Below, one piece after another: positions 2,944-62,031 of a stretch of 64,000 nt of DNA. Source of the DNA: Candidatus Neptunichlamydia sp. (GTDB taxonomy: Bacteria > Chlamydiota > Chlamydiia > Chlamydiales > Simkaniaceae); NCBI GenBank assembly GCA_965233865.1, contig OZ247587.1:128001-192000 (forward strand), in the 5' to 3' direction. Position numbers and translations under genes: made by a program. The stretch's first letter is position 1. Each line of letters starts with the position of its first letter. The notes under the pieces are model-generated. The model was not told the DNA's origin. It was given only the letters and a program-made list of their open reading frames with translations, and did not search any database.

Positions 2944-3086
2944 GGAAGCTATTGGCCTTTGAAAAAAAAGCACCTTTCTGCCACTGGGATGCTGAAAAAG
3001 GTACGCGCAGTTTTTAAGAAAGTGCCAGTGCTGACAAGAGGTTTAAAAGGTATGAAGACGCGGATTTCTTTGCCAGATTGTCTATA

Positions 3087-3927
3087 TAGTGTAGACACAA
3101 GTTTAAATTTGCGATAAGCTGGTTTCTTAAACTTTCAAGGAGAGGTTTAGAGATGATCGTACCAGCGCACAGACGTCACGATATTTCAGATCGAATTTGG
3201 AAAAAACTTGAGCCTTATCTTCCAGGAAGAAGAGGGGTGTGGGGAGGGGTAGCACAGGATAATCGGCGATTTATCAACGCGGTTTTTTGGATTATTAGTA
3301 CCAGAGCTCCATGGCGTGACTTACCTTCAGACTATGGGAACTGGGGAAATGTGCATCGTCGTTTTATCCGTTGGAGGAATAAAGGTGTCTGGGAACTTCT
3401 TCTGGAAAAAGTGGTGGACGATCCTGATTACGAGTGGTTAATGATCGATGCAACCCATATCAAAGTTCACCCTCACGCAGCAGGTGCACAAGGTGGCAAT
3501 CAAGATATGGCTCGGACAAAAGGGGGCTCAACACGAAATTACGTTTGGCCGTGAATTCGCATGGTATGCCGATCAAAGCGATTATTACGTCAGGTACTCA
3601 ATCAGACTACTTTCAGGCCAAACACCTAATAGAGGGAATTAACGCCGATTACCTACTAGCAGATCGGGGTTATGACAGCGATGCAATCGTAACTCAAGCG
3701 ATCTCTCAAGGAATGAAGGCGGTTATCCCTCCCAGAAAAAATAGGAAAAGCAAGAGAGCTTATGATAAGCATCTCTATAAATTGAGACATCTTGTAGAAA
3801 ATGCTTTTTTATATTTGAAGCGATGGAGAGGAATTGCTACACGCTATGCTAAGCACACATCCTCTTTCTTGGCTGCGGTTCAGATCAGATGTTTGGCTTT
3901 ATGGGTAGAAATCTCGTGACTACACTA
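3087..3927 (+). mobile_element. IS5-family element (IS427-like group), two-ORF transposase with -1 frameshift
   Basis: Terminal IRs TAGTGTAGACACAAG / CTCGTGACTACACTA flanked by TA; ORFs 3153-3554 and 3434-3919 overlap at AAAAGGGGG (3518-3526); WRDLP, IDAT, ADRGYD and RHLVEN motifs. Confidence 0.92.
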
Positions 3928-4032
3928 TATAATCTCAGGGCTCGCTGTTTTTTGGTTAATATTTCCCGGGAGTTGCTGGAAATACACTGCTTTGCTTGCT
4001 GGAGAATAGAGATTCAGGTAAAATCATTTTAA

Positions 4033-12312: not shown

Positions 12313-13332
12313 ATGGCAAAGAATTATAGATTTGATACTGGGTACACATTTGATGATGTGGCTCTTGTTCCTCAATTTAACAACGTTCCCTCAAGGACTG
12401 AACCGATGCTTGAGTCGTGGCTCACGAAGAGTCGGAAGCTCGGAATTCCTATTTTATGTGCCAATATGGATACAACGATTTCTAAGAAACTTGCTGAGAT
12501 ATTGATTCAGAGAGGCTCGATCCCCATTTATCATCGATTCACTAAAGATTTTGAAGCTCAGAAAACATGGGTTAAGAAATTTGGAGAAAAGACGTTTGTT
12601 TCATGTGGAATTGGAAAGGAAAAAATTGCCGAGGTTCGGAAACTTTTTGACATGGGGGCCGCGGGTGTCTGCGTTGATGTGGCGCATGGTCATTCTGAAA
12701 AAATGCTCCACTTCATTGAAGAACTAAAGAAAACACACCCAGACCGCGATGTGATTGCAGGGAATGTCTGCACTCCCATGGCATATCAGGACCTTGTGAA
12801 TGCTGGAGCTGATGGGGTCAAGGTTGGAGTGGGCCCTGGTGCTGCTTGCACAACGCGGGTGATTACAGGGTTTGGTGTGCCACAGTTTACCGCTATTTTT
12901 GAGTGTGCAAAAATTGCAGAAAAGCTCAGAGTTCCGCTGATTGCCGATGGAGGAATCCGTACTAGCAAAGATGTTGTTTTGGCCTTAGCTGCTGGGGCGA
13001 GCTCTGTAATGATAGGAAAGCTCTTTGCTTTGACTGAGGAAAGTGCTGCTGAAAAAAAAGATGGGAAGGCAAAATTTCGTGGGCAAGCAAGCGAAGATTT
13101 TCAAACGGATTTCTATGGGGGATTGAAAGAAAAGACGGTTGCAGAGGGAGTGGGTTTTTTTGGGCCAGTGAGCGGATCGGCAGTAGAGCTTATTGATCTG
13201 CTACTAGGCGGAATTCGAAGTGGATTGACTTATGGAGGGGCTAGAAATATCAAGGAGCTTCAAAGGAAGGCAGAATTTGTCGAAGTAACCCCTGCCTATA
13301 TTCGCGAAAGTTATCCAAGGCCAGGCAATTAA
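12313..13332 (+). CDS. IMP dehydrogenase / GMP reductase family protein lacking CBS domains
   Basis: [22 protein letters not shown], catalytic loop [11 protein letters not shown] and IADGGI. Confidence 0.9.
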
Positions 13333-14663
13333 TGCATAAAAAATTGGGCGTTTGGATGTTGACGTCTTTAGTTGTTGGAAACATGGTGGGATCGGGAGTC
13401 TTTTTGCTCCCAGCATCTCTTGCGAAGTTTGGAAGTATTACCATTTTTAGCTGGATTGCAACCGCAATTGGAGCAATGCTTCTTGCGTTAGTTTTTGCGA
13501 AGCTCAGTAAAATATTTCCAAAAACAGGAGGGCCGTATATCTATTGCAAAGAAGGGTTTGGGAATTTTATTGGTTTCCAAGTTGCGTATAATTTTTGGAT
13601 TTGCAAATGGGCTGGAAGCGCTGCTATAGCAACAGCACTTACTGGGTATCTGAGTGCGTTCTTTCCTGTATTAGATCATAACAATTTTTATGCTTTTCTC
13701 GTGACCGCTGGATCTGTATGGATATTTACCCTTGTGAACGTCATTGGAGTCCATTTAGCAGGAAGTTTTCAGTTAGTCTTTACGATTATAAAATATATCC
13801 CACTCATTCTTGCTTCTGCCATTGGGATTTTCTATATTGACTTTGGGAATTTAGCGTATTTTAATATCAGTGGAAAGTCGAATTTTAGTGCTCTTTCTAG
13901 TGGATCTATGCTCACTCTGTGGGCATTTTTAGGGCTAGAGTCTGCTTCTATTCCGGCTGATGATGTTGAAAACCCCGAAAAGACCATTCCACGCGCGACG
14001 ATTATTGGGACCAGCCTTTCTGCAGTTGTGTATATCTTGTGTACGATTGCAATTATGGGAGTTGTTCCGATGCATGAGCTCCAGGACTCTGCAGCTCCAT
14101 TTGCTGATTTTGCGAAGAAAATTTTTGGTCCTTGGGGAATGTATGCTATGGGCGCGGTTGCTGTAGTCTCTTGCGCAGGGGCATTAAATGGCTGGATTCT
14201 CGTTCAAGGGCAAATTCCTATGGCTGCGGCAAAGGATCAACTTTTTCCCAGGCGCTTTGGAAAGGTCTCAAAAGGGCGCTCACCGGTTTTTGGACTTGTC
14301 TTTTCATCCATCTTAATTACGTTGCTGCTGACGCTAAACTTTAACAAAAATTTAGTCGATAAATTTACCATTATCATTTCGCTTGCGACTCTTGCAGGAG
14401 TCATTGCCTTCCTCTACACATCAGTAGTAGAGTTTGTCATCTATATTAAGTACCCTGAAAAGGCGCACAAAAAGAAGGTTGCTAAGACCTTAACAATTTC
14501 GGGACTAGCCTTTTTGTATACTTTTTGGGCAATTGCAAGTGCAGGGCAGGAGATTGTATTTTATGGGTCTCTCTTAATGTTTAGTAGCATTCCTATTTAT
14601 GGATGGATGGAATGGCAAAAATATCGAAAATCGATCTTAAAACAAGTGAGCCTCGATGAATAA
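13332..14663 (+). CDS. APC-family amino acid permease (AdiC/PotE/ArcD-like), paralog 1
   Basis: GNMVGSGVFLLPASLA, GGPY and WAFLGLESA motifs. Confidence 0.9.
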   Translation: MHKKLGVWMLTSLVVGNMVGSGVFLLPASLAKFGSITIFSWIATAIGAMLLALVFAKLSKIFPKTGGPYIYCKEGFGNFIGFQVAYNFWICKWAGSAAIATALTGYLSAFFPVLDHNNFYAFLVTAGSVWIFTLVNVIGVHLAGSFQLVFTIIKYIPLILASAIGIFYIDFGNLAYFNISGKSNFSALSSGSMLTLWAFLGLESASIPADDVENPEKTIPRATIIGTSLSAVVYILCTIAIMGVVPMHELQDSAAPFADFAKKIFGPWGMYAMGAVAVVSCAGALNGWILVQGQIPMAAAKDQLFPRRFGKVSKGRSPVFGLVFSSILITLLLTLNFNKNLVDKFTIIISLATLAGVIAFLYTSVVEFVIYIKYPEKAHKKKVAKTLTISGLAFLYTFWAIASAGQEIVFYGSLLMFSSIPIYGWMEWQKYRKSILKQVSLDE

Positions 14664-15969
14664 GAAGTTAGGGGTATGGATGTTGACGGCCTTGGTCGTC
14701 GGAAATATGATCGGATCCGGAGTATTTCTGCTCCCAGCATCACTCGCTAGCTTTGGAAGTATTACAGTCTTTAGCTGGTGCGCGACAGCGGTTGGAGCAA
14801 TGCTGCTGGCGTTGGTTTTTGCGAAGTTGAGCACCCTCTTTCCTAAGACAGGAGGCCCTTATATCTACTGCAAAGAGGGGTTCGGGAATTTTATCGGTTT
14901 TCAGGTAGCCTATAACTACTGGATATATATGTGGGTAGGCAATGCCGCGATTGCTGTGGCATTTACAGGGTACTTAAGCACATTTTTCCCAGAGATAATC
15001 CATAGTAGTGTGTATGCATTTTTTATTGCTGCTGGAGTAGTTTGGTTTTTTACAATTGTAAATATTATTGGGGTTCATCTAGCAGGGAAGTTTCAGCTTG
15101 TTTTAACAGTTCTAAAGTTTGTTCCTCTTATTTTGATTGCTGTAATAGGGGTTTTCTTTGTGGATACTACAAACTTGGCTTACTTTAATGTGAGTGGGAA
15201 ATCAAATTTTAGTGCTCTATCAGGTGGAGCTATGCTCACTCTGTGGGCATTTTTAGGAATGGAATCTGCATCGATTCCTGCCGATGATGTCAAAGACCCA
15301 AAGAAAACGATTCCGAAGGCAACAATACTCGGAACCGCTATAACGGCTGTTGTTTACATCTTAAGTACGGTGGCGATTATGGGCGTTATCCCTATGCCGC
15401 AGCTGAAAGATTCTACAGCTCCATTTGCAGATTTAGCGGGAAAAATTTTTGGACCTTGGGGAAGGTATGTAATGGGTGCGGCAGCTGTTATTTCATGTGC
15501 AGGCGCTTTGAATGGTTGGATTTTCCTTCAAGGGCAGATTCCTCTGGCAGCAGCAAAAGATAAGCTATTCCCTAAGCCGTTTGCAAAAGTTTCTAGATCC
15601 CGCTCGCCAGTTTTTGGAATTGTTACTTCTTCAATCCTGATCACATTGATTCTTCTTTTAAATTTTAACAAAGGGCTAGTCGACCAGTTTACATTTATCA
15701 TCTCTTTGGCAACATTGGCCGCGATTACTGCATACCTATATACTTCTGTTGCTGAATTTGTTGTTTATATTAAGTATCCCAACAAAATGGATAGAAAGAA
15801 GGTTATAAAATCCCTATCAATTTCTGCTTTGGCTTTTATTTACACCTTTTGGGCAACTGTTAGTGCTGGACAGGAGATTGTATTTTATGGATCTTTATTG
15901 ATGTTTACGAGCATCCCGATCTATGGTTGGATGGAGTGGCAAAAATATCGAAAAAAATATTGTAAGTAA
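14656..15969 (+). CDS. APC-family amino acid permease (AdiC/PotE/ArcD-like), paralog 2
   Basis: Same motifs; visibly similar along its length to 13332-14663. Confidence 0.9.
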   Translation: MNKKLGVWMLTALVVGNMIGSGVFLLPASLASFGSITVFSWCATAVGAMLLALVFAKLSTLFPKTGGPYIYCKEGFGNFIGFQVAYNYWIYMWVGNAAIAVAFTGYLSTFFPEIIHSSVYAFFIAAGVVWFFTIVNIIGVHLAGKFQLVLTVLKFVPLILIAVIGVFFVDTTNLAYFNVSGKSNFSALSGGAMLTLWAFLGMESASIPADDVKDPKKTIPKATILGTAITAVVYILSTVAIMGVIPMPQLKDSTAPFADLAGKIFGPWGRYVMGAAAVISCAGALNGWIFLQGQIPLAAAKDKLFPKPFAKVSRSRSPVFGIVTSSILITLILLLNFNKGLVDQFTFIISLATLAAITAYLYTSVAEFVVYIKYPNKMDRKKVIKSLSISALAFIYTFWATVSAGQEIVFYGSLLMFTSIPIYGWMEWQKYRKKYCK

Positions 15970-22414: not shown

Positions 22415-22568
22415 AGATTAATCACACAAACTGCTGAAAGATAATACCCAATAAAGGTGTCTTCAGTAGCAGCTTTATCAACTATTTTCACCTTTGTCTT
22501 CATATTTTAGATGGTATCCTAAATTTTTTTTGGTGCAAAAGTACTTTTAGAGAGACTGTAAGAATAAC

Positions 22569-23553
22569 TGATCTTCCCCCGTTTTTGTAGACATTTTTAA
22601 CATAGACTATTCTTATGTTTTTCTTCAAATTTCACCGGGCTCAAATATCCCAATGTTGAATGCCTTCTCTTATTGTTATAGTAGCATTCTATATAGTTAA
22701 ATATTTTATTTTCAGCAACTTCTGTATCTTTAAAAACTTCAGCTCCTACGCATTCTCTCTTAAGAGAATTGAAAAAACTTTCCATTGAGGCATTGTCATA
22801 GCAACTTCCTTTTCCACTCATGCTTCCAATCATGTTGTTTTTCTTTAGATTTTTATCTATTGCTTCAGAGCCGTATTGTGACCCTTGATCTCTATGAAAT
22901 ATTATCCCTTCTACAGCTCCTCTTCTTGAGACTGCCTGCAGTTCTTTTCTCATATGCTTTTTGATGGAATGTCCAACGATTTTCCTAGAGTAAAGATCCA
23001 TGACTGTACATAAATATGCCCACCCTTTGCCTGTCCTTATATAGGTAATATCGCTGACCCATTTAGCATTCTTTTTCTCTGCCGTAAAATTCTGGTTAAG
23101 CAAGTTCGGCTTCTTCTCTTTTACTACTAACTTCTTTCTTTTTCTTTCTTTGTTTTGCAACTAAATTGTTCTTCTTCATAATGTTAGCAACTCTCTTTTC
23201 ACTACAGTGCACCCCTTTTTCCTTCAGTTCCATAAAAATTATTGGGCTTCCATATCGTTTTTTGTGCTCATAAAAGATCTGTTCTACTTCCTCGGTAAGC
23301 TTCTCTTCTTCTTCCCTTGCCTGCTTCTCAGTCTTAATCAATCGACTATGGTCATGCTTACTGAGCCATACTTTTAGCGTAGAAACATCTATACTCAGAT
23401 CACTTGCTACCTCTTCTATCTTCAGTCCCTCTTCTCTCACTAACTTGACCACATTCCATTTAAATTCATCATTGATTTTTTTCATTTGCTTTTACTCCTC
23501 TTTAAGTTCGAGAAGTCTATATCATAACTGTCCTATTTTTCGGGGGAAGATCA
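22569..23553 (-). mobile_element. IS3-family element, internally deleted and frameshifted
   Basis: IRs TGATCTTCCCCCG (22569) / CGGGGGAAGATCA (23553); orfA-like HTH fused to an orfB start (23096-23485); integrase core WVSDITY, HRDQGSQY and DNASMESFF (22597-23160). Confidence 0.9.
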
Positions 23554-23768
23554 GTTTAGAAAAGTGGCAAAAAATAAGTCAGTCTTCCCTACAGACGAGT
23601 CTCTTTTGAAGATGCTGTATCTGGCTTCTGATGGAATACAAAAGAAACGGACAATGCCTGTAAGGGGCTGGAAAGAAGCCATCTCATATTTTAGGATAGC
23701 TTGCGAAGATAGGATCTCAAAAGGAGTTGAGGCCTAATGACCGTTTACACAGTTTAGATTACACTCCC
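23554..23768 (+). mobile_element. IS256-family 3' remnant
   Basis: Translates FRKVAKNKSVFPTDESLLKMLYLA...MPVRGWKEAI; ends in IS256-type IR TTACACAGTTTAGATTACACTCCC. Confidence 0.8.
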
Positions 23769-24057
23769 TCCATAAATTATGGGTCATTTAGCTGGTCTAT
23801 ATTGTTCTTATTCAAGTTAATTTTTGTCTATGTCAATTTTTGCTTGATCAGTTTTGAAGCTCGTGTTGGTTTTTCATTAATTTTTTAAAATTGTTATTAA
23901 ACATGACTTTATCTAATATTTTTTATTCTATCTCTTATTTAAAAGATCTAAAACCTTCTTCTTTTAGTTGTTCGATATCATCGCACAGATGCTCTAGTAG
24001 AGATTGCAATACTTCGTCTTTATTGTTGGTCAGCCCAGATTCAATCTCTTTGGGTTT

Positions 24058-24600
24058 GATTCCCCGCAGCTTGCTGCGTAAAAGCTGAACAAGTATAGTT
24101 TTTTGGCATGAGTGAATATATTCATAAAAGTCATAATGTCTCAGTTTTGATGTACCACATAGTTTGTCCGGCCAAATACAGGAAAGCGGTATTTGACAAG
24201 AGTGTTGATAAAGAAATTAAGGTCATATGCCTTGAAATTTCAAAGAGATATGAGATAAATTTTTTAGAGATCGGTGTTGATAAGGACCATGTTCACTTTC
24301 TGATACAATCAGTTCCGATGTATAGCCCCAAAAAAACTATTCAGCTAATAAAAAGCATCACGGCAAAAGAGATTTTTTTGAGAAGGCCTGAAGTAAAGAA
24401 GATACTTTGGGGAGGGGAGTTTTGGAGTGATGGATATTTTATAAGTACCGTGGGGAAGCATGGGGACGAGGAGAAAATAGGAAACTACGTCAAAAACCAA
24501 GGAAAAAAAGACTATAAAAGGTTACATCAGCAACTGGATTTTTGGAGCTAAGCAAAACCACCTGACAGATGCCCCGTAGCTCTGCTGCGGGGAGCCTTCA
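24058..24600 (+). mobile_element. tnpA: IS200/IS605-family element with intact TnpA (24108-24551)
   Basis: YHIVCPAKYR, HUH motif DHVH, WSDGY and YVKNQ; subterminal hairpins CCCCGCAGCTTGCTGCG and CCCCGTAGCTCTGCTGCGGGG. Confidence 0.92.
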
Positions 24601-24603
24601 CTA

Positions 24604-41597: not shown

Positions 41598-41688
41598 CAG
41601 TAAATTTGTTAAGCTTCCAGCATAGAGAATTGCCAAGAAGAGGTTTTAGCGCCTGAGTATTTTTCAAGAAAAGTTCCTTAAGTCCAGG

Positions 41689-42423
41689 TATAGCTAAAAT
41701 ATTTCGTTTTAGTTATACTTTTTTGAATGACGTATTCATTAGATTTTAGAAAAAAGGTACTGCTGATCCGAAGCACAGAAAATTTAAGTTTTGCTAAGAC
41801 AGCAAAACGTTTTGGTGTAAGTGTAAATAGCATATTTCTTCGGTCTAAGAGGCTAGAGGCAAAGCGCACTAAAAATAGACCTGCAATAAAGATTGAAAGA
41901 GATCGCTTGATGGAGGATATCAAAAAAATACCCTGATGCCTTCAACTATGAACGAGCATATCGTCTCAATGTAAGCCCTTCAGGTGTTCGTTGTGCCATA
42001 AAGCGGCTAAGAATTAGCTATAAAAAAAACACTTAACCATCCCAAGGCTTGCAAAAAAAAGAGATCTCTCTTCAGAGAAAAGATTGCAAGGTATGAATGC
42101 TTGGAACAAACCTTTTTACTCTTGCACTGTTTGATTGTAATATTAATACAGATGCCTTTAGCAGTTGGGCAGAGCAAAACTTGATGCCGAAACTTCCTTC
42201 TGAAAGCGTTTTAGTTATGGATAATTCATCGTTTCATAAAAGCAAATCTATGCAAGAAAAGGTCGAAGCTGCAGGCCACATCTTGGAATATTTTCCCCCA
42301 TATTTAAATCCTATTGAGCGTAAATGGGCACAAGCAAAATCTAAACGAAGAAAATATCAATGTGGAATTGATGAACTTTTTAAGGAATATTGCCTATAAC
42401 TAAATTATATCAACTTAGCTATA
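41689..42423 (+). mobile_element. IS630-family element, degenerate
   Basis: IRs TATAGCTAA / TTAGCTATA; HTH MTYSLDFRKKVL; DDE fragment VMDNSSFHK..NPIERKW; frameshifts and internal deletion. Confidence 0.88.
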
Positions 42424-42656
42424 TTTGACTTTTTTGGCATACTAAATGGGTCATTGCTTTTTTCAACTAATCCTAGAGAAAAAAGTGGAATTGCTCAAGT
42501 AGAGGTGAGAGCTTAAATGAACCAATACCTTGTCTTTTTCTTCCAAGAACGAGAAGCTTAACAAGCTCTAGAGTCATGAATTTTTCTATTGGAAATTCTT
42601 TCATTTTAATACCTATTATTGTGAACTAATATGTATATTATATCATTTATTTTTAA

Positions 42657-50628: not shown

Positions 50629-50646
50629 AAAGCCCTAGTGTTTAGA

Positions 50647-50922
50647 TAGTGTAGTCACGGGATTTCTACCCATAAAGCCAAACATCTGATCTGAACCGCA
50701 GCCAAGAAAGAGGATGTGTGCTTAGCATAGCGTGTAGCAATTCCTCTCCATTGCTTCAAATGTAAAAAAGCATTTTCTACAAGATGTCTCAATTTATAGA
50801 GATGCTTATCATAAGCTCTCTTGCTTTTCCTATTTTTTCTGGGAGGGATAACCGCCGGCCAAATGTAATTTCGTGTTGAGCCCCCTTTTGTTCGAGCCAT
50901 ATCTTGATTGCCACCTTGTGCA
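50647..50922 (-). mobile_element. Truncated, internally deleted copy of the IS5 element at 3087-3927
   Basis: Near-identical to about 3484-3550 joined to about 3718-3927, including the right IR. Confidence 0.9.
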
Positions 50923-50938
50923 AGAGATTTTCTCAGAG

Positions 50939-51298
50939 CTAACTCAAAGCCGTGTACTTTTTTTTAAGCCATTCCAGCTCCATTTTTAGCCTTCCAATTT
51001 GCTCAAATAACTCTCCTTTTTCCTGCTCCTCTTCCTTGGTAATCAAACGCTTATTGCTTTTCTCAAAAATTTAGGCTGCCGTGGCTTTAAAGTGTCTTTT
51101 CCACCCTCCAAGGACTAAAGGGTGAACTTCAAATTTTCCAGCAAGCTCTCCTGCTGTTTTCTCTCCTTTCAAAACTTCAAGCACCACCTTCAGCTTGAAT
51201 TCAGCGGAATATTTTTTTCTTGTTTTTGCCATTTCTGTTCTCTTTTTGCTCGGAGAAAACTAGCTTAGCAAGTGGCTCGAATTTCTGGGACCATTATA
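50939..51298 (-). mobile_element. IS3-family left end and orfA remnant
   Basis: ATG 51232: MAKTRKKYSAEFKLKVVLEVLKGEKT...stop...LFEQIGRLKMELEWLKKK; IR-like TATAATGGTCCCAGAAATTCGAGCCAC. Confidence 0.8.
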
Positions 51299-51319
51299 CC
51301 AGAAAACAGCCTGAATTAC

Positions 51320-51942
<623 letters not shown>

Positions 51943-52227: not shown

Positions 52228-52495
52228 CAAAGGGGGGTGACCCCTAAAAAGCATTCTTTTTTTATTGTTGATCAAGCTGATTTACGCACGAATGGAATTT
52301 CCAAATTACGTGTTATTCATCTCATGATACACTCTCAGCAAAACACATAAAAAAATTTAAAAAATGCAAGAATTCATGCCACGATTCAGTACAAAATGTG
52401 TTATAATAGACACAAGGAGAACAAGATGAGCATATCAATCACACCTAAAAACAGCACTACTATTTCAACACAGACAATGTCGATTGATGAATTGT
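52228..52495 (+). repeat. Upstream/promoter repeat, copy 1 (copy 2 at about 55377-55646)
   Basis: Near-identical GGGGGGTGACCCCTAAAAAGCATTC...TGTGTTATAATAGACACAAGGAGAACAAGATGAGCATATCAATC. Confidence 0.9.
52399..52407 (+). promoter_or_regulatory. Extended -10 promoter (TGTTATAAT); also at 55550-55558 and 61555-61563
   Basis: Same motif shortly upstream of the RBS and ATG of RING genes 1, 3 and 5. Confidence 0.65.
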
Positions 52496-52848
52496 TAGAT
52501 GAACGCTTAAAAGAACGACAATCTAAAGCAGAAAGGATGATAGAAGAACTGAGACCACTTTGCGAAGAACTGCCTCTAGATGCATTGGATCCTGTAAGCA
52601 TGGAGCCTTTTAACGGGAAGAACATACCAATTGTTTACAGGTGTGGACATGTTTTCAATAAGTCAACAGTAAAAAAAATGATAGATCTTAGTGATCCAGC
52701 AAGGCTAGGGGATCTTGATTGCCCGGTATGTAAGCTTGTCTGTGGAAGAGTTCAGCTCCTTGATTGCATACCTTTAGAAGGACTTGTTGATCACATGGAA
52801 AAAATAACAAAAGTATTCAAGGAAAACACAGAAAATGAGCCCACATAA
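52426..52848 (+). CDS. Degenerate RING/U-box protein, module 1
   Basis: EELRPLCEELP.DALDPV...RCGHVFNK...CPVCK; N-terminus MSISITPKNS. Confidence 0.85.
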   Translation: MSISITPKNSTTISTQTMSIDELLDERLKERQSKAERMIEELRPLCEELPLDALDPVSMEPFNGKNIPIVYRCGHVFNKSTVKKMIDLSDPARLGDLDCPVCKLVCGRVQLLDCIPLEGLVDHMEKITKVFKENTENEPT

Positions 52849-53090: not shown

Positions 53091-53169
53091 ACCCCAAGGA
53101 GAACAATATGTCAGCCATAGCAAGTATTCAGAACAACACTATTTACTTTGAACAGTTCGTCCGAGATCA
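52942..53169 (+). repeat. 228-bp identical direct repeat with 56821-57048
   Basis: Compared base by base; spans a partner 3' end, the RBS and the start of an MSAIAS-type RING gene. Confidence 0.92.
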
Positions 53170-53569
53170 ACTCAAAACTCAAGAATTCGAAGCACGAGCA
53201 GAATTAAAAGATCGGGAAGTTGATGAAAGGAATCTGAAAGAGAAGAATGTTTTGAATAAAAGGTTTATTGAGGAGCTAAGACCTTTATGTGAAGAATTAC
53301 CTCCTGACGCCTTGGATCCTGTGACTATGGAGCCACTCTCAAGAGAAAACATTCCCATAGTATATAGATGTGGCCATGTCTTTAACAAAGAAACAATTAA
53401 AAATATTATTATATCGAACAAGCTTTTAAAAGGGTCTGATCTTAATTGCCCTGTTTGCAGATTAGTATGTGGGAGAATCCAACTCATTGACTGCATACCA
53501 CTAGAAGGGCTTGTTGAGCACATGGAAAAAATAACAAAAATATTTAAGGAAAATACAGAAAATGAATAG
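53108..53569 (+). CDS. Degenerate RING/U-box protein, module 2
   Basis: LDPVTMEP...RCGHVFNK...CPVCR; N-terminus MSAIASIQNN. Confidence 0.85.
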   Translation: MSAIASIQNNTIYFEQFVRDQLKTQEFEARAELKDREVDERNLKEKNVLNKRFIEELRPLCEELPPDALDPVTMEPLSRENIPIVYRCGHVFNKETIKNIIISNKLLKGSDLNCPVCRLVCGRIQLIDCIPLEGLVEHMEKITKIFKENTENE

Positions 53570-55350: not shown

Positions 55351-55576
55351 AGGGACCCGGGACCTGGTGGTCGTCGCAAAGGGGGGTGACCCCTAAAAAG
55401 CATTCTTTTTTTATTGTTGATCAAGCTGATTTACGCACGAATGAAAAATTCAAAATACGTGTTATTCCTCTCATGATATACTCCCTGCATTTCTACATGA
55501 AAAGTTTTTTAAAAACACAAGAATTCATGCCACGATTCAGTGCAAAATGTGTTATAATAGACACAAGGAGAACAAG

Positions 55577-55984
55577 ATGAGCATATCAATCACACCAAAA
55601 AACAGCAATACCGTCGCAACACAAACAATGTCGATTGATGAATTGTTTGAAGAGAGATATAAAGAACGACAGACAAGAGATAGCAAGATTGTTGAAGAAC
55701 TAAGGCCTTTGTGCGAAGAACTACCTCCAGATGCTCTAGATCCTGTGACTATGGAGCCTTTTACACTAGAGAACATTCCATTAGTCTTCAAATGCGGGCA
55801 TGTATTTAATAAAGAGACAATTAAATCTCTAATCGCGAATAACCCTGAAAAAAATTCAGGAATATCATGTGCTGTCTGCAAAGAAAAAATTTTTAAAAAC
55901 CACATATCAGAATGCGTTCCTCTTGAGGGGTTAGTGGGACACAACAAAAAAATAAACAGAGTCTTTAAAAAATATGCCGAGTAA
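55577..55984 (+). CDS. Degenerate RING/U-box protein, module 3
   Basis: LDPVTMEP...KCGHVFNK...CAVCK; N-terminus MSISITPKNS. Confidence 0.85.
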   Translation: MSISITPKNSNTVATQTMSIDELFEERYKERQTRDSKIVEELRPLCEELPPDALDPVTMEPFTLENIPLVFKCGHVFNKETIKSLIANNPEKNSGISCAVCKEKIFKNHISECVPLEGLVGHNKKINRVFKKYAE

Positions 55985-56986: not shown

Positions 56987-57523
56987 ATGTCAGCCATAGC
57001 AAGTATTCAGAACAACACTATTTACTTTGAACAGTTCGTCCGAGATCAGCTTAAAACACAAGAATCCGAAATGCGAGCAGAATTAAAAGATCGAGAGATT
57101 GAAATACGCGAAATGAAAGCTCAAAAAACAATGAACGATAGGATAGTTGAAGAGCTTAGGCCTTTATGTGAAGAATTGCCTGAATGTGCTTTAGATCCAG
57201 TGACGTATGAACCAATTAAAACACCTCTAGTGATGAGATGCGGACATACGTTAAGCTCTAAAACAGCAGGAACTTTGGCCAATGCAAAAGGCTTAAAAAA
57301 ATACGATAAAATACCATGCCCTTTGTGTCGAACGGAAACAATAGGCGCATGTTTTATATACGAGCAGTCGTTTGAAGAAACAGTAGAACATCTTGAAAAA
57401 ATAACGAAAATATTTAAAAAAACGGTAAAAAATAATGAAGCACAACCGAAGAAGAAAACAGCAGCGCTTGAATCTCAGAACGAAAAAAAAGGGATCAAGA
57501 AGAGAAAATGTAGTTTACGTTGA
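56987..57523 (+). CDS. Degenerate RING/U-box protein, module 4
   Basis: LDPVTYEP...RCGHTLS...CPLCR; N-terminus MSAIASIQNN. Confidence 0.85.
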   Translation: MSAIASIQNNTIYFEQFVRDQLKTQESEMRAELKDREIEIREMKAQKTMNDRIVEELRPLCEELPECALDPVTYEPIKTPLVMRCGHTLSSKTAGTLANAKGLKKYDKIPCPLCRTETIGACFIYEQSFEETVEHLEKITKIFKKTVKNNEAQPKKKTAALESQNEKKGIKKRKCSLR

Positions 57524-58572
57524 TTCTCAAAAAAAGAAAAATGCTGGCTACGTAGATCCGGAATACGTCGAATCAACTCGTCAGCGATCTCTGCCTTTTC
57601 TTGATGGTGGTGCAGCGTCAAATGTGTTTCTGGAAGATATTGAATCTAGTTCAACAAGGGAAACTTCCATTGATTCTGTGAGGACATCAAACTCTCTTTC
57701 AGACGTATTGACAGGTAAATATGAATCTTTATTTGACTTCACTGATGACTCTGAAGATAAAGACGCGATTATGGAAGATGCAAGAATAGCATCTAAGGGA
57801 GCTCCAAGTTATTTTAAAGTTTTACTGGATGACATAGAAAAACATCAAAAATCAAAGCTACCATTCTCGCACAGTAATAGGTTTGGTTTCGGAGTTAAGC
57901 AAGGAGCAGATGGACAATTCGAGCAAAAAGACATGGTTACTGGATACGGAACGGAGCCCTTACATCATCTAGAGATATACGAACCTCCTGGAAAGAAGGG
58001 ACCATTTACTCAATCACAACTTAATAGCGGTGAACTTTTATTTCCTAGTGACGAGGAAGAATCAGAAGATTCCACAAGAATGCGTCATGATTATGAAGGA
58101 CGTACGTTCTATGGTAAACAACCAAGAACTGTAGATGACTTGCTTCATGAACACGGCCACCAAAGATCTTCAAGAGTCCATAAACAGAAGATCTATTCCA
58201 TTGCCAATGATTCATCCATCTGGAATTCCAGCATTATATTCAGACCTAGAAGAGGCCAGAAATATAGAAAATGACGAGAATGCAGCTAGGAGAGAATTTG
58301 GTAAACGTCCTCGTCTCGGTCATATTGGAATAAATTCAGGTCTTGGGGAGGAAAACTTCCAAGACACAGTTGAAAACTATGCAAATCTCCATCCAGGTCA
58401 TATGTTGCGTGGGAAAGGGTTTATTAAATCAATAATTGAGGACGATTACCCCCAATTTGATGATGATGGAGAACAAGTAAATGAATCACTTCGAGATATT
58501 CTTATTGGACAAGGGCGCTTTGCAAATAGACCAGAATTATTTAACACCTTCAATAGTCACTTTGGAACTTGA
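57435..58572 (+). pseudogene. Module 4 partner; NleD/M91-like zinc metalloprotease, frameshifted
   Basis: LLHEHGH in the first frame; after a shift near 58161 it continues KDLQ...LEEARN..NDENAARREFGKRPRLGH. Confidence 0.65.
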
Positions 58573-58815
58573 TATTTTTCGTAAACTTTAACTAAATTCA
58601 CATTAAAACCTTCCAAATCCCAACTAATTATACTTAAACACGCATATTCTCATTTAATCACGTTTTAAGCTGATTTATCTTCTCGCAATCCCAACACAAC
58701 TCTAAGTCTCCAACAGCGCAACACAGCGCAAATCTGAGCCTTGTTTTTTGGAGATCTCCCCAAAATTTCTCTTTGTGTTAATCTTTCACCCAAAACAAAA
58801 TAAAAGGCCCCTCTT

Positions 58816-59556
58816 ATGACAAATCTAGCAATACAAATGGTCTCAAGCCTTCAGAAAAACATTCCTAATATCGAAAAGTCTCTCTCTCATAAATTCAACG
58901 ATACGGATCTACTAACAAGAGCATTTATGGACTCTAGCTTTCCTTTGGTGGGGATGGTCAGCGACGACGGAGAAACCAATGAAGATTTCGTATGGCGTGG
59001 AAACTATCTTTTGCAGCTTGCTATCGCAGACTATATCGAAGCGAACCATCACTCTGCAGACAAGTCCATAAAAAACACCATGCTAACGAAGCATATTAGC
59101 AACGATGCTTGTGTTAAGTACATCGACAAACTTCAGGTTTTTAATCACTACCTATATCAATGCCCTCATGGCTTAATCAACCCAGATGCACAGATCGCTC
59201 CATTCAAAGGAAAATGTTTTAAGGCAATCCTAACTGCTGTATATCTCGACGCTGGGAAATCTCTAGAGCCAATACACAACATGTTTCTTGATAAATTCAA
59301 TATTGAGCTGGAGGATTCCTTAGAATTCGCTGAAAAGAACTGGAAAAGCCTCTTGAATGAGTTTTGCCAAAAAAATCGTATGGGACAACTAATCTTCACA
59401 CTCGCAGAACGAAGCGGCCCTGATCATGCTCCAATGTTCAAAGTAAAATTAACCCTCAATGACGATAACCTCTCTACAGGAGAAAGCACCTCAAAAAAGC
59501 AAGCCGAGCAAATTGCTGCAAAGACAGCTTACGAAAAGCTTGTTCCTAAACCGTGA
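58816..59556 (+). CDS. RNase III homolog with dsRBD, catalytic residues substituted
   Basis: IEKSLSHKFND.DLLTRAF, NEDFVWRGN and FKAILTAVYLD; dsRBD NWKSLLNE..GPDHAPMF..SKKQAEQIAA. Confidence 0.88.
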   Translation: MTNLAIQMVSSLQKNIPNIEKSLSHKFNDTDLLTRAFMDSSFPLVGMVSDDGETNEDFVWRGNYLLQLAIADYIEANHHSADKSIKNTMLTKHISNDACVKYIDKLQVFNHYLYQCPHGLINPDAQIAPFKGKCFKAILTAVYLDAGKSLEPIHNMFLDKFNIELEDSLEFAEKNWKSLLNEFCQKNRMGQLIFTLAERSGPDHAPMFKVKLTLNDDNLSTGESTSKKQAEQIAAKTAYEKLVPKP

Positions 59557-59599
59557 TTTATGGAAGTATCTTTCTTTTTTAAGAAGGAGAAGTGAGAGC

Positions 59600-60115
59600 T
59601 TGTCAGAGAAAACACAATCGCAACAAACAAGTCAGTTAATCAGCACCAAGCAAGCAGCGCAGATCATTGGCTGTTCTATAGATTTATTCAAAGGCTATCT
59701 TTCTAGAAGAGTTTTTCAACCAAGCAAGAAAGTAAGTGGCAAGAATTTCTACTGCGAAAAAACCATCCGAAATTTTGTCCCTCCGAGTAGAGTCAAGAAA
59801 AGCAAGCCTCTTTCTAATAAATCAAGCACGGTTGATAGTATTGACATCGTTGACATGCGCGACATCATCAAACGGTGGCAAACATCTCCTCAGGACAATG
59901 CTTCATGCGACGTGGAAATTGGCGTATATACCGAAAAAATTCAAAGATTAGAAATAGACATGCATGGCGTTGATAAAGAAACTAAGGAGTTCTTAAGCAT
60001 GAGAGCGCTCTTAGTAAGATATGTCTTTGCAAGAAGAAAGCTCTTAAATTATCTACAAAAAGCTCACTTTGGAAGGTACCTCAAGGCCATAAGGATGATT
60101 AATAGCGAAGTTTAA
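59600..60115 (+). CDS. HTH DNA-binding domain fused to a ribosomal protein S15-like domain
   Basis: LISTKQAAQIIGCS HTH; DNASCDVEIGVYTEKI...RRKLLNYLQK..GRY S15 pattern; TTG start behind AAGGAG. Confidence 0.75.
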   Translation: MSEKTQSQQTSQLISTKQAAQIIGCSIDLFKGYLSRRVFQPSKKVSGKNFYCEKTIRNFVPPSRVKKSKPLSNKSSTVDSIDIVDMRDIIKRWQTSPQDNASCDVEIGVYTEKIQRLEIDMHGVDKETKEFLSMRALLVRYVFARRKLLNYLQKAHFGRYLKAIRMINSEV

Positions 60116-60126
60116 AAGGATAAAGC

Positions 60127-60471
60127 ATGGATATATTCGTAAAAAACCTCCCCTTAAGCGTAACATCATCTCAACTCAAAGAACTCTTCAGCATATATGG
60201 AAAAGTATTGTCCGCAAAAGTCATCGTAGATCATGAAACGCAAGTATCCCGTGGCTTTGGATTTGTTACAATGCTGGTAGATTCCGAAGCAAAACTAGCA
60301 ATCAGAAGACTTGATAGTGCAAATCTTGAAGGCAATATTATTATAGCCAAAGAAGCTCGTCCTAAAGTTGCGAAATCTATGAACTTCAGTAGTAGAGATT
60401 CTGTACTGCCAAGAAGTTTCAAACGACCAAAAGCATTGTCAGATAGAGCGCAATTCAAAGATTATGATTAG
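60127..60471 (+). CDS. RRM RNA-binding protein
   Basis: RNP2 IFVKNL, RNP1 RGFGFVTM and EARPK motifs. Confidence 0.92.
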   Translation: MDIFVKNLPLSVTSSQLKELFSIYGKVLSAKVIVDHETQVSRGFGFVTMLVDSEAKLAIRRLDSANLEGNIIIAKEARPKVAKSMNFSSRDSVLPRSFKRPKALSDRAQFKDYD

Positions 60472-60514
60472 AACTTACAACTAAAAATTTACAGTGGAGT
60501 AACAGGGTAAAAAA

Positions 60515-60955
60515 GTGACTCAAGAGAGCACAGTCGCAGAAACGGCAAAAGAGAGAATTAAACGAAAGAAAAAGGAAAAAGCTAATGAAGCACCATCCAC
60601 AGCTGAAGAGGCTTCAATTATGGAGGAAACAGAAGTCCTAGAGATTTATCCCTACAGCAAAGTGAAATCAAAGTGGATAGCTCAAAGCACAGTAAAAATC
60701 AAGGTGCCGCATGTTGGGATAGAGCTTCGTAATATCGTCTATAGTATTTCCAAGGATCATAGAGTAAAAGTGCAGCCTCCCTTTAGATATTACAAATTTG
60801 CTGAAGAGCTTGATAAAGCTGATGCCTATGTTGAAAGCATTAAATTCTTGAATAGACCAACCTGGAAAGAAGCTGTTAAAAAGATCAAAAAAGAAGCCCT
60901 AGATCATCATAGAAATGAGCTTCCTGAGATAGAAAATTCTTCAGAGAGTAAATAG
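60515..60955 (+). CDS. Hypothetical protein, possibly SpoVG-like nucleic-acid-binding fold
   Basis: IAQSTVKI...IELRNI...KVQPP...YVESIKF followed by a C-terminal helix. Confidence 0.5.
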   Translation: MTQESTVAETAKERIKRKKKEKANEAPSTAEEASIMEETEVLEIYPYSKVKSKWIAQSTVKIKVPHVGIELRNIVYSISKDHRVKVQPPFRYYKFAEELDKADAYVESIKFLNRPTWKEAVKKIKKEALDHHRNELPEIENSSESK

Positions 60956-60977
60956 CAAAAGCTGATTGCTATTTTTT
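60951..60977 (+). terminator. Intrinsic terminator closing the 58816-60955 operon
   Basis: Stem AATAGCAA / TTGCTATT followed by a T-run. Confidence 0.6.
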
Positions 60978-61079
60978 GGGCATTCGTACAGAAATAAATC
61001 CTTCTGATCATCGAATCTTAGCTCTAAAGATTCCTGAAGTTTTTGTAGCATTTCATTATCAGTTAGCATGATAGATGTC

Positions 61080-61394
61080 TTAGTTCTCTTTGGGTTCTTC
61101 GTCTTTATTTTCCTCAAAGTGAAATACCTTCTTTGGGACTAGATACCCTTCAATCGTAGAGAGTCTTTGGCTTGTTTCATGTTTAAAGTCATCGATTCTT
61201 TGATTGATGTTTTTAACTTCAACTTCCATGGCAGTTAAACGGTTTTCTATGCCATTAAAGCGTGTGTTATTTTCTTTTTGATGAGACTCCATTTTTGTAT
61301 CAGTGTCTTTCTTATTTGCGTCTATTTTGTTCATCATGTAGATAAACCCACCAATGAAAACTCCTATAACAGTAAGTGCTTGCGTCCAGTCCAT
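61080..61394 (-). CDS. Small membrane-anchored coiled-coil protein
   Basis: MDWTQALTVIGVFIGGFIYMM TM segment followed by heptad repeats. Confidence 0.65.
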   Translation of the reverse strand: MDWTQALTVIGVFIGGFIYMMNKIDANKKDTDTKMESHQKENNTRFNGIENRLTAMEVEVKNINQRIDDFKHETSQRLSTIEGYLVPKKVFHFEENKDEEPKEN

Positions 61395-61584
61395 GATTAT
61401 CATCCATTGTTTTCGTCTAATTCTCATTTTATCCCTTTGTAGCTTTACCAGCAAATATAAATCCAGTAAACAGCAAGCGTTGAATTTTTATGAAACGAAG
61501 GTCTAAAATATTTTTGATTTTGAACGATTTCATTCAATGATTCCGTGCAGAGTATGTTATAATAAAGGTAAGAGGATAAACAAG

Positions 61585-62031
61585 ATGACAGCCATATTAA
61601 GCATTCAGAATAACACCATTTACTTTGAAAAATTTGTCAGACAGCAGCTCAAAACGCAAGAAAGCGAAGCACGAGCAGATCTAAAAGGTCGCGAAGCTGA
61701 AATGCGCGAAGTAAAAGCTCAAAAGACAATGAACGACAGGATAGTAGAAGAACTCAGGCCCTTATGCGAGGGACTTTACTCTTCATCTTTAGACCCAGTT
61801 TCATATGAACCGATACTAGATCCTTTTATATTTATATGCGGTCATACATTCAATAGAAATACAATTCTTGGGATTATACACCACCAAAATTTAGACCTGC
61901 ATAGGGGAAATATCAAATGTCCATCTTGTAGGACAATTTGTGAAATACAGAAATTATACCCATCAATTCCATTGGAAGAAATGTCAGAGAAAACAAAGAA
62001 AATTCATCAACTTTTGAATAAAACAGAGTAA
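61585..62031 (+). CDS. Degenerate RING/U-box protein, module 5
   Basis: LDPVSYEP...ICGHTFNR...CPSCR; N-terminus MTAILSIQNN. Confidence 0.85.
   Translation: MTAILSIQNNTIYFEKFVRQQLKTQESEARADLKGREAEMREVKAQKTMNDRIVEELRPLCEGLYSSSLDPVSYEPILDPFIFICGHTFNRNTILGIIHHQNLDLHRGNIKCPSCRTICEIQKLYPSIPLEEMSEKTKKIHQLLNKTE

Follow-up and report, generated by a model that had tools for sequence, protein, structure and literature searches.

A plasmid-associated RNase III paralogue of Candidatus Neptunichlamydia that has lost its catalytic acids and is predicted to bind, and not to cut, double-stranded RNA

RNase III has a central part in bacterial RNA processing, and the E. coli variant rnc70 (E117K) binds double-stranded RNA (dsRNA) without cutting it. 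The Aquifex enzyme has been crystallised with dsRNA as D44N, E110K and E110Q mutants (1rc7, 1yyo, 2ez6 and 1yz9, by the titles of these Protein Data Bank (PDB) entries). A 2013 review asked whether members of the RNase III family act non-catalytically in cells, and the examples that it gave are organellar only (PMC3867540). [quoted passage not shown] Here we describe a bacterial gene of this kind, found in a 64,000-nucleotide (nt) stretch of Candidatus Neptunichlamydia sp. contig OZ247587.1 (G000:C1:128001-192000, hereafter the window; G000 is this genome, a single 1.83-Mb contig). Judged from its sequence, the product is a pseudo-RNase III, that is, a class-1 bacterial paralogue with the RNase III fold and a normal dsRNA-binding domain (dsRBD) whose catalytic acids are lost.

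The protein shares with rnc70 and with the Aquifex mutants an architecture of one RNase III domain followed by a dsRBD; its N63 corresponds to the D44N substitution and its K136 to E110K, which places a lysine at the position of E. coli E117. Unlike these laboratory point mutants, it has five acids replaced naturally, and the replacements are fixed throughout its family, under purifying selection and on a mobile element. RNC1 is also a natural RNase III-family protein with mutated catalytic residues, but it is a eukaryotic, nuclear-encoded protein with RNase III domains in tandem, whereas the present protein combines a single domain with a dsRBD and is bacterial and plasmid-borne; no intron link was seen in its gene cassette. 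KREPB4 and KREPB5 have degenerate RNase III domains retained by selection, as here, but these proteins are eukaryotic and mitochondrial and carry PUF and zinc-finger domains where the pseudo-RNase III has a dsRBD. The RNase III-like chains of mitoribosomes (6vlz_c and 7o9m_c; Foldseek E ~1e-8-1e-9, Z 12.8-13.4, 16-20% identity), chain c of these human and mouse entries being presumably mL44, combine an RNase III-like domain and a dsRBD as a structural RNA binder, but belong to a subunit of a eukaryotic organelle ribosome, and nothing was seen that suggests incorporation of the pseudo-RNase III into ribosomes. Natural non-catalytic RNase III proteins are already known in eukaryotic organelles; in the open-access full texts searched, no account was found of this family or of a natural catalytically dead RNase III that is bacterial or plasmid-borne.

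In the Aquifex enzyme, E40, D44, D107 and E110 form a two-metal site, and E110, the equivalent of E. coli E117, is functionally essential, as is E117 itself (PMC3867540). Residues of the window protein were paired with these through HMMER alignments to solved RNase III chains, with positions counted on the printed Aquifex chain 2ez6_A (a D44N mutant). A phmmer search of all PDB chains matched bacterial RNase III over almost the full length of the protein, with 3n3w_A (1.5e-13), 1o0w_A (4.4e-12) and Aquifex chains (~2e-10) at the top. The resulting pairs, window protein before Aquifex, are E56/E37, V59/E40, W60/F41, N63/position 44, K133/D107 and K136/E110. All four Mg-binding acids are therefore replaced (V59, N63, K133, K136), as the original prediction had claimed, and the fifth acid, equivalent to E. 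coli E65, is K83, while the equivalent of E38 is retained as E56. We take the E. coli counterparts of the remaining lost acids to be E41, D45 and D114. With the acids of the two-Mg2+ site gone, cleavage by the known mechanism would be excluded. The nuclease-like domain also scores below the curated cut-offs, with 21.4 bits against 35 for PF14622 and 95.3 against 166.25 for TIGR02191, where the canonical rnc of the same genome reaches 117 and 231 bits, respectively.

The dsRBD is intact, again as predicted, with a full-length Pfam dsrm match (Table 1; cut-off 23 bits) and a score in a whole-genome scan of 73.7 bits against 75.2 for the canonical rnc. All three RNA-contact regions (helix 1, the GPxH loop and the KKxAE helix 2) are retained, the latter two as GPDH and KKxAEQxAA. 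Across family and canonical rows K177 is invariant and G201, H204, K227, A230, E231 and Q232 are at least 90% conserved. In helix 1, the family-invariant N181 aligns by eye with Aquifex Q157, a glutamine that contacts bases (PMC3867540). As the contact regions are unaltered, dsRNA binding is expected. On its sequence, the protein should therefore bind dsRNA and should not cleave it; its dimeric state, its target RNA and its biological role are likewise inferred.

An AlphaFold2 model built with a 27-sequence alignment (mean predicted local distance difference test score, pLDDT, of 83) has a helical domain followed by an alpha-beta-beta-beta-alpha dsRBD, with elements at H176-186, E192-200, E207-214, E217-224 and H227-242. 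The all-helical RNase III fold is recovered in this model, whose best Foldseek matches in the PDB are Aquifex and Thermotoga RNase III (E ~2e-11; top match 2nug_A, E 1.9e-11), with the mitoribosomal RNase III-like chains and plant RTL4 also among the matches. The nuclease-like domain superposes on the Aquifex nuclease domain 1jfz_A with a VIA-align Z of 16.6 and a root-mean-square deviation of 2.7 A over 145 residues. Both Pfam and the model give a single RNase III-like domain, not a tandem pair.

The replacements are not peculiar to this copy. A search of 5.8 billion clustered proteins yielded 28 family clusters at 56-89% identity, the next matches (at least 80% query coverage) being ordinary RNase III at 31% or below. 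The only named family-level matches are two proteins of 'Candidatus Neptunichlamydia sp. REUL1', one a 'putative dsRNA-binding protein' at 89% identity and the other a 149-aa fragment (P0026), in addition to a JGI label 'ribonuclease-3' on P0009. The window protein was aligned with every cluster but P0026 (27 of 28) and with seven canonical sequences, namely its own rnc and six weaker matches. The four catalytic columns read V/M/I, N, K and K in 28/28 family rows and E, D, D and E in 7/7 canonical rows, and the column of the fifth acid reads K/R/M across the family. Since every homologue examined has the same replacements, they cannot be due to chance. Residues invariant in 27 family sequences include E53, N55, E56, F58, W60, R61, G62 and N63; A76, N77, H78, H79, K86 and N87; and P129, F130, K131, K133, C134, F135 and K136, so that the segments of the former active site fall among the invariant columns. 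A profile search of 1.84 billion representatives produced no intermediates to canonical enzymes; the family scored 457 bits, its most divergent member (P0122, partial, 48% identity, with V, N, T and K at the catalytic positions) 236 bits, and the best full-length canonical enzymes 132 bits or less.

Selection on the gene was gauged from the ratio of nonsynonymous to synonymous substitution rates (dN/dS), calculated by the Nei-Gojobori method with a custom script, for the five pairs in which synonymous sites were not saturated. The window gene and the copy L008 of the congener G034 gave 0.047 (dS 1.24), and metagenomic copies gave 0.048 for L029 and L031 (dS 0.59), 0.061 for L029 and L033 (dS 2.5), 0.099 for L031 and L033 (dS 1.5) and 0.085 for the near-identical contigs L027 and L028 (dS 0.05). 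By domain, pairs with unsaturated dS gave 0.02-0.05 for the nuclease-like part and 0.05-0.13 for the dsRBD; the inactivated domain is at least as constrained as the dsRBD. Selection has therefore retained an RNase III domain that is inactivated, as in the known non-catalytic RNase III-like proteins. An intact frame together with low dN/dS indicates that the gene is not decaying, in agreement with the original prediction, which had argued from the frame and had named dN/dS and shared substitutions among homologues as checks. A decaying pseudogene was rejected on the dN/dS values and the conservation.

The origin of the family was approached with a quick maximum-likelihood tree of 67 rows, comprising 27 family members, 19 chlamydial rnc and 21 other rnc (every fourth weaker match, filtered to 200-290 aa; P0026 and P0028 left out). 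The family forms one clade (Shimodaira-Hasegawa-like approximate likelihood ratio test, SH-aLRT, 100), whose stem is 3.05 substitutions per site long and whose internal branches are short, and it joins a part of the tree occupied by chlamydial rnc in which branching order is unresolved; the non-chlamydial enzymes form a clade of their own (99). A chlamydial rnc duplicate that changed fast and then froze would agree with this tree, although the long branch and the biased sampling make the placement weak. Searches elsewhere returned no relatives: a scan of genome contigs with the family alignment gave 29 pattern matches and 0 relatives; in IMG/VR, one of 21 pattern stretches passed tblastn and was a false match to a tail-fibre repeat (ADSIEANH...); among 72,556 plasmid and 50,697 phage records, tblastn picked out 17 and 2, respectively, all of them canonical rnc with no more than 28% identity; and a protein atlas search gave generic RNase III clusters only.

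The genome of the window retains a canonical rnc, a point that the original prediction had left to be confirmed. It lies at G000:C1:945935-946591 (-), its NERLEFLGD and ADLFEA motifs are intact, and the ORF (open reading frame) after it is radA-like by eye. A second copy of the pseudo-RNase III gene, at 663775-664512 (-), has 0/738 nt differences from the window copy and lies within a duplicated segment (Table 1). In a third, decayed copy of the region at 1225212-1222938, the gene is reduced to its last ~17 codons. Family-level matches were found in 2/400 scored Chlamydiota genomes, namely G000 and its congener G034 (2/15 within the genus), all other matches among the 400 being canonical-level at 34% identity or less. 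G034 carries one intact and one broken copy.

A second, independent degenerate paralogue was found in one other chlamydial genus, at G189:C49:56288-56974 (L047) and G094:C92:2223-2915 (L050). Its motifs are NERLEFLGN/A and AAHLIKS/ASEIIKS, such that E41 is kept while D45 is N or A, D114 is H or E, and E117 is K; both genomes also have a canonical rnc. It resembles the pseudo-RNase III in having a single RNase III domain, a dsRBD and a lysine at the E117 position, but it stands outside the family, keeps E41, is chromosomal and has an altered dsRBD helix. It adjoins an HlyD-like gene and a gene that is carbonic anhydrase-like by eye.

The genomic surroundings of the pseudo-RNase III bear on what it might do. 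A blastn comparison with both G034 copies gave 78-79% identity from position 58709/58719 to 60127 and nothing beyond. Because homology covers just the pseudo-RNase III gene, the gene that follows it and ~100 nt upstream, we regard these as a two-gene cassette. The second gene encodes a helix-turn-helix (HTH) domain fused to an S15-like domain, and its G034 orthologue (169 aa) likewise has a TTG start. The product scores 39.2 bits for Pfam Ribosomal_S15 (cut-off 31) and is above the cut-off in every copy scanned; the homologue in metagenomic locus L033 has HTH_17/MerR matches, and a model of the protein matches ribosomal S15 chains at 26-30% identity. The genome has a normal rpsO (1715324-1715566, 113 bits) beside four S15-like copies. 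The HTH-S15 gene is linked to the pseudo-RNase III in 4/4 genomic copies and 5/6 metagenomic sequence types, in the latter within ~2 kb upstream; it was not seen in the short flanks (3.0 and 1.9 kb) of the sixth type, L027/L028. At locus L035, a gene for an RRM-type protein lies between the S15-like gene and the pseudo-RNase III. Separately, one PDB match of the HTH-S15 model is 8bd5, a Cas12k transposon complex that includes S15 as its host factor and is an established example of S15 put to use by a mobile element.

Scans for regulatory features were uninformative or negative. A promoter and terminator scan of 58300-61600 gave 6 promoter-like sites against 8.5 expected, and the palindrome GGAGATCTCC upstream of the gene was rejected as an operator because it is not conserved in G034. 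When the window and five loci were searched at Rfam gathering thresholds, neither the cassette nor the elements had a match; the only one was a group II intron domain (RF00029, 54.9 bits) at G034 L041 3867-3942 (-), ~4 kb from the cassette.

A scan of JGI metagenomes recovered ten loci on nine contigs, in six sequence types (L027/L028; L029/L030; L031 with L032/L036; L033; L034; L035). The longer contigs encode ParA, a Toprim-DUF3987 primase-helicase, a ResIII/DEAD helicase, a ClpX-like ATPase, a Rep-initiator-like ORF and a DnaJ-domain ORF, as well as a family-A DNA polymerase, two ParB-N/MT-A70 methylases, a Cro/CI-like repressor and a DUF3987 helicase; their single 'head scaffolding' match is a coiled-coil ORF. 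One contig of 30,170 bp has an exact 123-nt overlap between its ends, located inside the pseudo-RNase III gene, and an independent 12.9-kb contig bridges the junction at 100% identity. The contig thus closes on itself as a ~30-kb circular plasmid-like element (L032 + L036 + L031), probably from a marine chlamydia. The longest contigs with family members cluster at 27.8-34.2 kb. No virion gene was present in the examined 56-57% of two ~30-kb contigs, and the remainder could change this picture. The ClpX-like gene of the elements is 57% identical to that of G000. Replication and partition genes, a closed contig and the island around the window copy together place the gene on mobile elements. As a further observation, the circular element also carries a gene for an HPr-like protein.

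On balance we lean, without great assurance, towards the pseudo-RNase III being a non-cleaving dsRNA binder that serves a mobile element inside the bacterium. The gene travels as cargo on plasmid-like mobile elements, probably those of marine chlamydiae, and G000 has copies of the cassette integrated in a decaying island. The protein would hold an RNA duplex, or shield it from the RNase III of the host; candidate duplexes are sense/antisense pairs or a structured regulatory RNA of the element, and the HTH-S15 partner would probably act in the same pathway. The cassette and its plasmid-like context point to a role inside the bacterium for the element and not to a host-directed effector.

Several points weigh against this. 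The solved E110K complexes hold RNA in a non-catalytic manner (PMC3867540), and the way in which a natural valley with two lysines would contact RNA may not be predictable from them. The invariance of the new residues exceeds what inactivation needs (W60-R61-G62-N63, N77-H78-H79, K86-N87 and K131/K133/C134/K136), and may reflect another ligand or activity. The Rfam search named no target RNA in the cassette or the elements. Chromosomal copies are partly decaying, with one remnant in G000 and one broken copy in G034, and the low dN/dS may reflect plasmid-borne ancestors and need not apply to the integrated copies, because these may descend from such ancestors. The elements could possibly be phage-plasmids instead of plasmids, given that 56-57% of two ~30-kb contigs has been seen, and their chlamydial hosts are assigned from a guanine-cytosine content of 39-42%, the ClpX-like gene and the two chlamydial genomes that carry the family.

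The original prediction had proposed a dominant-negative action on the RNase III of the cell or, after secretion, masking of dsRNA in the eukaryotic host. In the former case, the protein would join canonical RNase III in a heterodimer through the conserved dimer helix, leading to a cut in one strand or to a block. The aromatic residue aligned with Aquifex F41, which we take to be the 'ball' of the ball-and-socket subunit interface, is retained as the invariant W60, and the cell has a canonical rnc as well; such a pair would resemble KREPB4/5 and KREN1-3 in the editosomes of trypanosomes. When one subunit of an RNase III heterodimer is dead, the enzyme nicks dsRNA, and KREPB4/5 have been put forward as non-catalytic partners; a live/dead pair is expected to nick one strand and not simply to block (PMC3867540). 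The pseudo-RNase III is, however, just 26-28% identical to the rnc of its own genome, its interface helix is much altered (F58, W60 and R61 against canonical L, F and L), a mobile element would encounter differing host enzymes, and its conserved partner is the HTH-S15 gene and not rnc; we consider such pairing unlikely. Export into the eukaryotic host, with dsRNA sequestered from RNA interference (RNAi) or dsRNA sensors, also strikes us as improbable. The organism is a chlamydia and thus obligately intracellular, the window gene has five or more RING/U-box-like genes around it, a DnaJ-domain protein encoded on related elements is leucine-rich-repeat-like by eye, and dsRBD and RRM are common among eukaryote-facing folds. 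Type III secretion signals are variable and disordered, however, whereas the N-terminus here is a conserved predicted helix, with no hydrophobic Sec-type signal by eye; the conserved partner is a DNA-binding HTH protein, replication and partition genes adjoin the gene, and the RING/U-box genes are adjacent neither to the G034 copies nor to the gene in the examined parts of the metagenomic elements.

The invariance noted above could instead mark a rebuilt valley (invariant His-His, Lys, Cys, Asn, Trp and Arg) with a new activity or ligand, such as metal-independent RNA cleavage, recognition of RNA-DNA hybrid or origin DNA, or binding of a structured RNA with the S15-like partner. Consistent with this, 27 sequences show no variation at the replaced positions or next to them, the nuclease-like domain has the lowest dN/dS, the very long stem is followed by short branches within the family, and the net charge of the domain has shifted from between -9 and -1 in the seven canonical rows to between -4 and +2 in the family rows. 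In P0122, on the other hand, K133 and R61 are replaced by T and L, such chemistry is without precedent on the RNase III fold, and the case draws on conservation; a new pocket therefore seems quite doubtful to us. That the gene is a decaying rnc duplicate without function has next to no probability: the island is repeat-rich with frameshifted neighbours and one copy has been deleted in G000 and one broken in G034, but the frames are intact, dN/dS stays at 0.05-0.10 with dS reaching ~2.5, and 28 clusters at 56-89% identity have the same replacements. An anti-CRISPR role, in which RNase III-dependent maturation of CRISPR RNA would be blocked, was also considered and is unsupported here, with no Cas9 match in the 96%-complete genome.

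Returning to the non-cleaving dsRNA binder, a more specific and rather speculative form, to which we give little weight, is that of a two-protein module dedicated to nucleic acids on a ~30-kb plasmid of chlamydiae, in which the Lys/His valley would clamp duplex RNA and the HTH-S15 protein would tether it to DNA. The clamp could do no more than shield the duplex from host RNase III, or it could have new, metal-independent chemistry. Were this so, housekeeping RNA-binding folds would have been recruited as plasmid maintenance or anti-host-nuclease factors, and the protein would become the first natural pseudo-enzyme reported from bacteria to oppose RNase III or guard RNA. More generally, the plasmid biology of environmental chlamydiae is little known, and on plasmids of these organisms the housekeeping RNase III and S15 appear to have been duplicated and repurposed jointly. 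The family offers a natural, testable binder of duplex RNA that may set a plasmid against, or alongside, the RNase III of its host, and the independent paralogue of G094 and G189 suggests that such pseudo-enzymes recur and have been overlooked. Most of them are labelled 'ribonuclease-3' by automatic annotation.

Table 1. Positions of the pseudo-RNase III gene, its parts and the features around it (window numbering unless preceded by G000:C1).
Feature	Position	Strand	Details
Pseudo-RNase III gene	58816..59556	+	246 aa, stop codon within coordinates; single long ORF at the locus
RNase III-like domain, all-helical, catalytic acids lost	58858..59295	+	residues ~15-160
Altered signature motif NEDFVWRGN (canonical NERLEFLGD)	58978..59004	+	translation
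Altered second catalytic motif PFKGKCFKA (canonical ..ADxFEA)	59200..59226	+	translation
dsRBD	59341..59541	+	residues 176-242; Pfam dsrm (PF00035) 1.6e-19, 70.6 bits, profile 1-66 of 66
HTH (excisionase/MerR-like) fused to S15-like domain	59600..60115	+	171 aa, likely TTG start after AAGGAG
RRM-type RNA-binding protein gene	60127..60471	+	12 nt past the HTH-S15 gene; Pfam RRM_1 8e-19
Unit common to G000 and G034	58709..60127	+	~100 nt upstream, pseudo-RNase III gene and HTH-S15 gene
Duplicated segment, 4.1 kb	57692..61776		matches G000:C1:665650-661552, 98.2% identity
S15-like copies	59600-60115; G000:C1:663234-663467, 1222931-1223167, 1268475-1268711		
Resolvase	51388-51942		window island
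HU	63592-63912		window island
RING/U-box-like paralogues (at least five)	52396-52848, 53108-53569, 55547-55984, 56987-57523, 61537-62031		weak Pfam zf-RING_UBOX/zf-Nse matches

The island around the window copy contains the resolvase, HU and RING/U-box-like genes listed in Table 1, and just outside the window lie a DUF3987 helicase, an MqsA-like ORF, Bro-N, an IS4/5 (insertion sequence) transposase and an integrase fragment. The RING/U-box-like family looks, from its sequences, like eukaryote-type E3-ligase effectors, and many more copies are present at two other repeat regions (~661-670 kb and ~1215-1232 kb). Upstream of the pseudo-RNase III gene, the ORFs at 57435-58274 and 58135-58572 overlap and correspond to a single 359-aa frame in the third copy of the region (~1224-1225 kb); the window copy of this pair is probably frameshifted. 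Downstream, a 146-aa ORF (60515-60955) follows the RRM gene after a 44-nt gap and resembles, if weakly (34% over 77 residues), a small ORF adjoining the pseudo-RNase III in L033. Elsewhere in the window, short repeat or IS-like families at 3079-3942, 22566-23563, 24037-24602, 41681-42424 and 50631-51299 have 8-20 genome copies each at 90-99% identity, and tandem duplicates of ~1.3 kb at 13332-14630 and 14656-15954 are 73% identical to each other.

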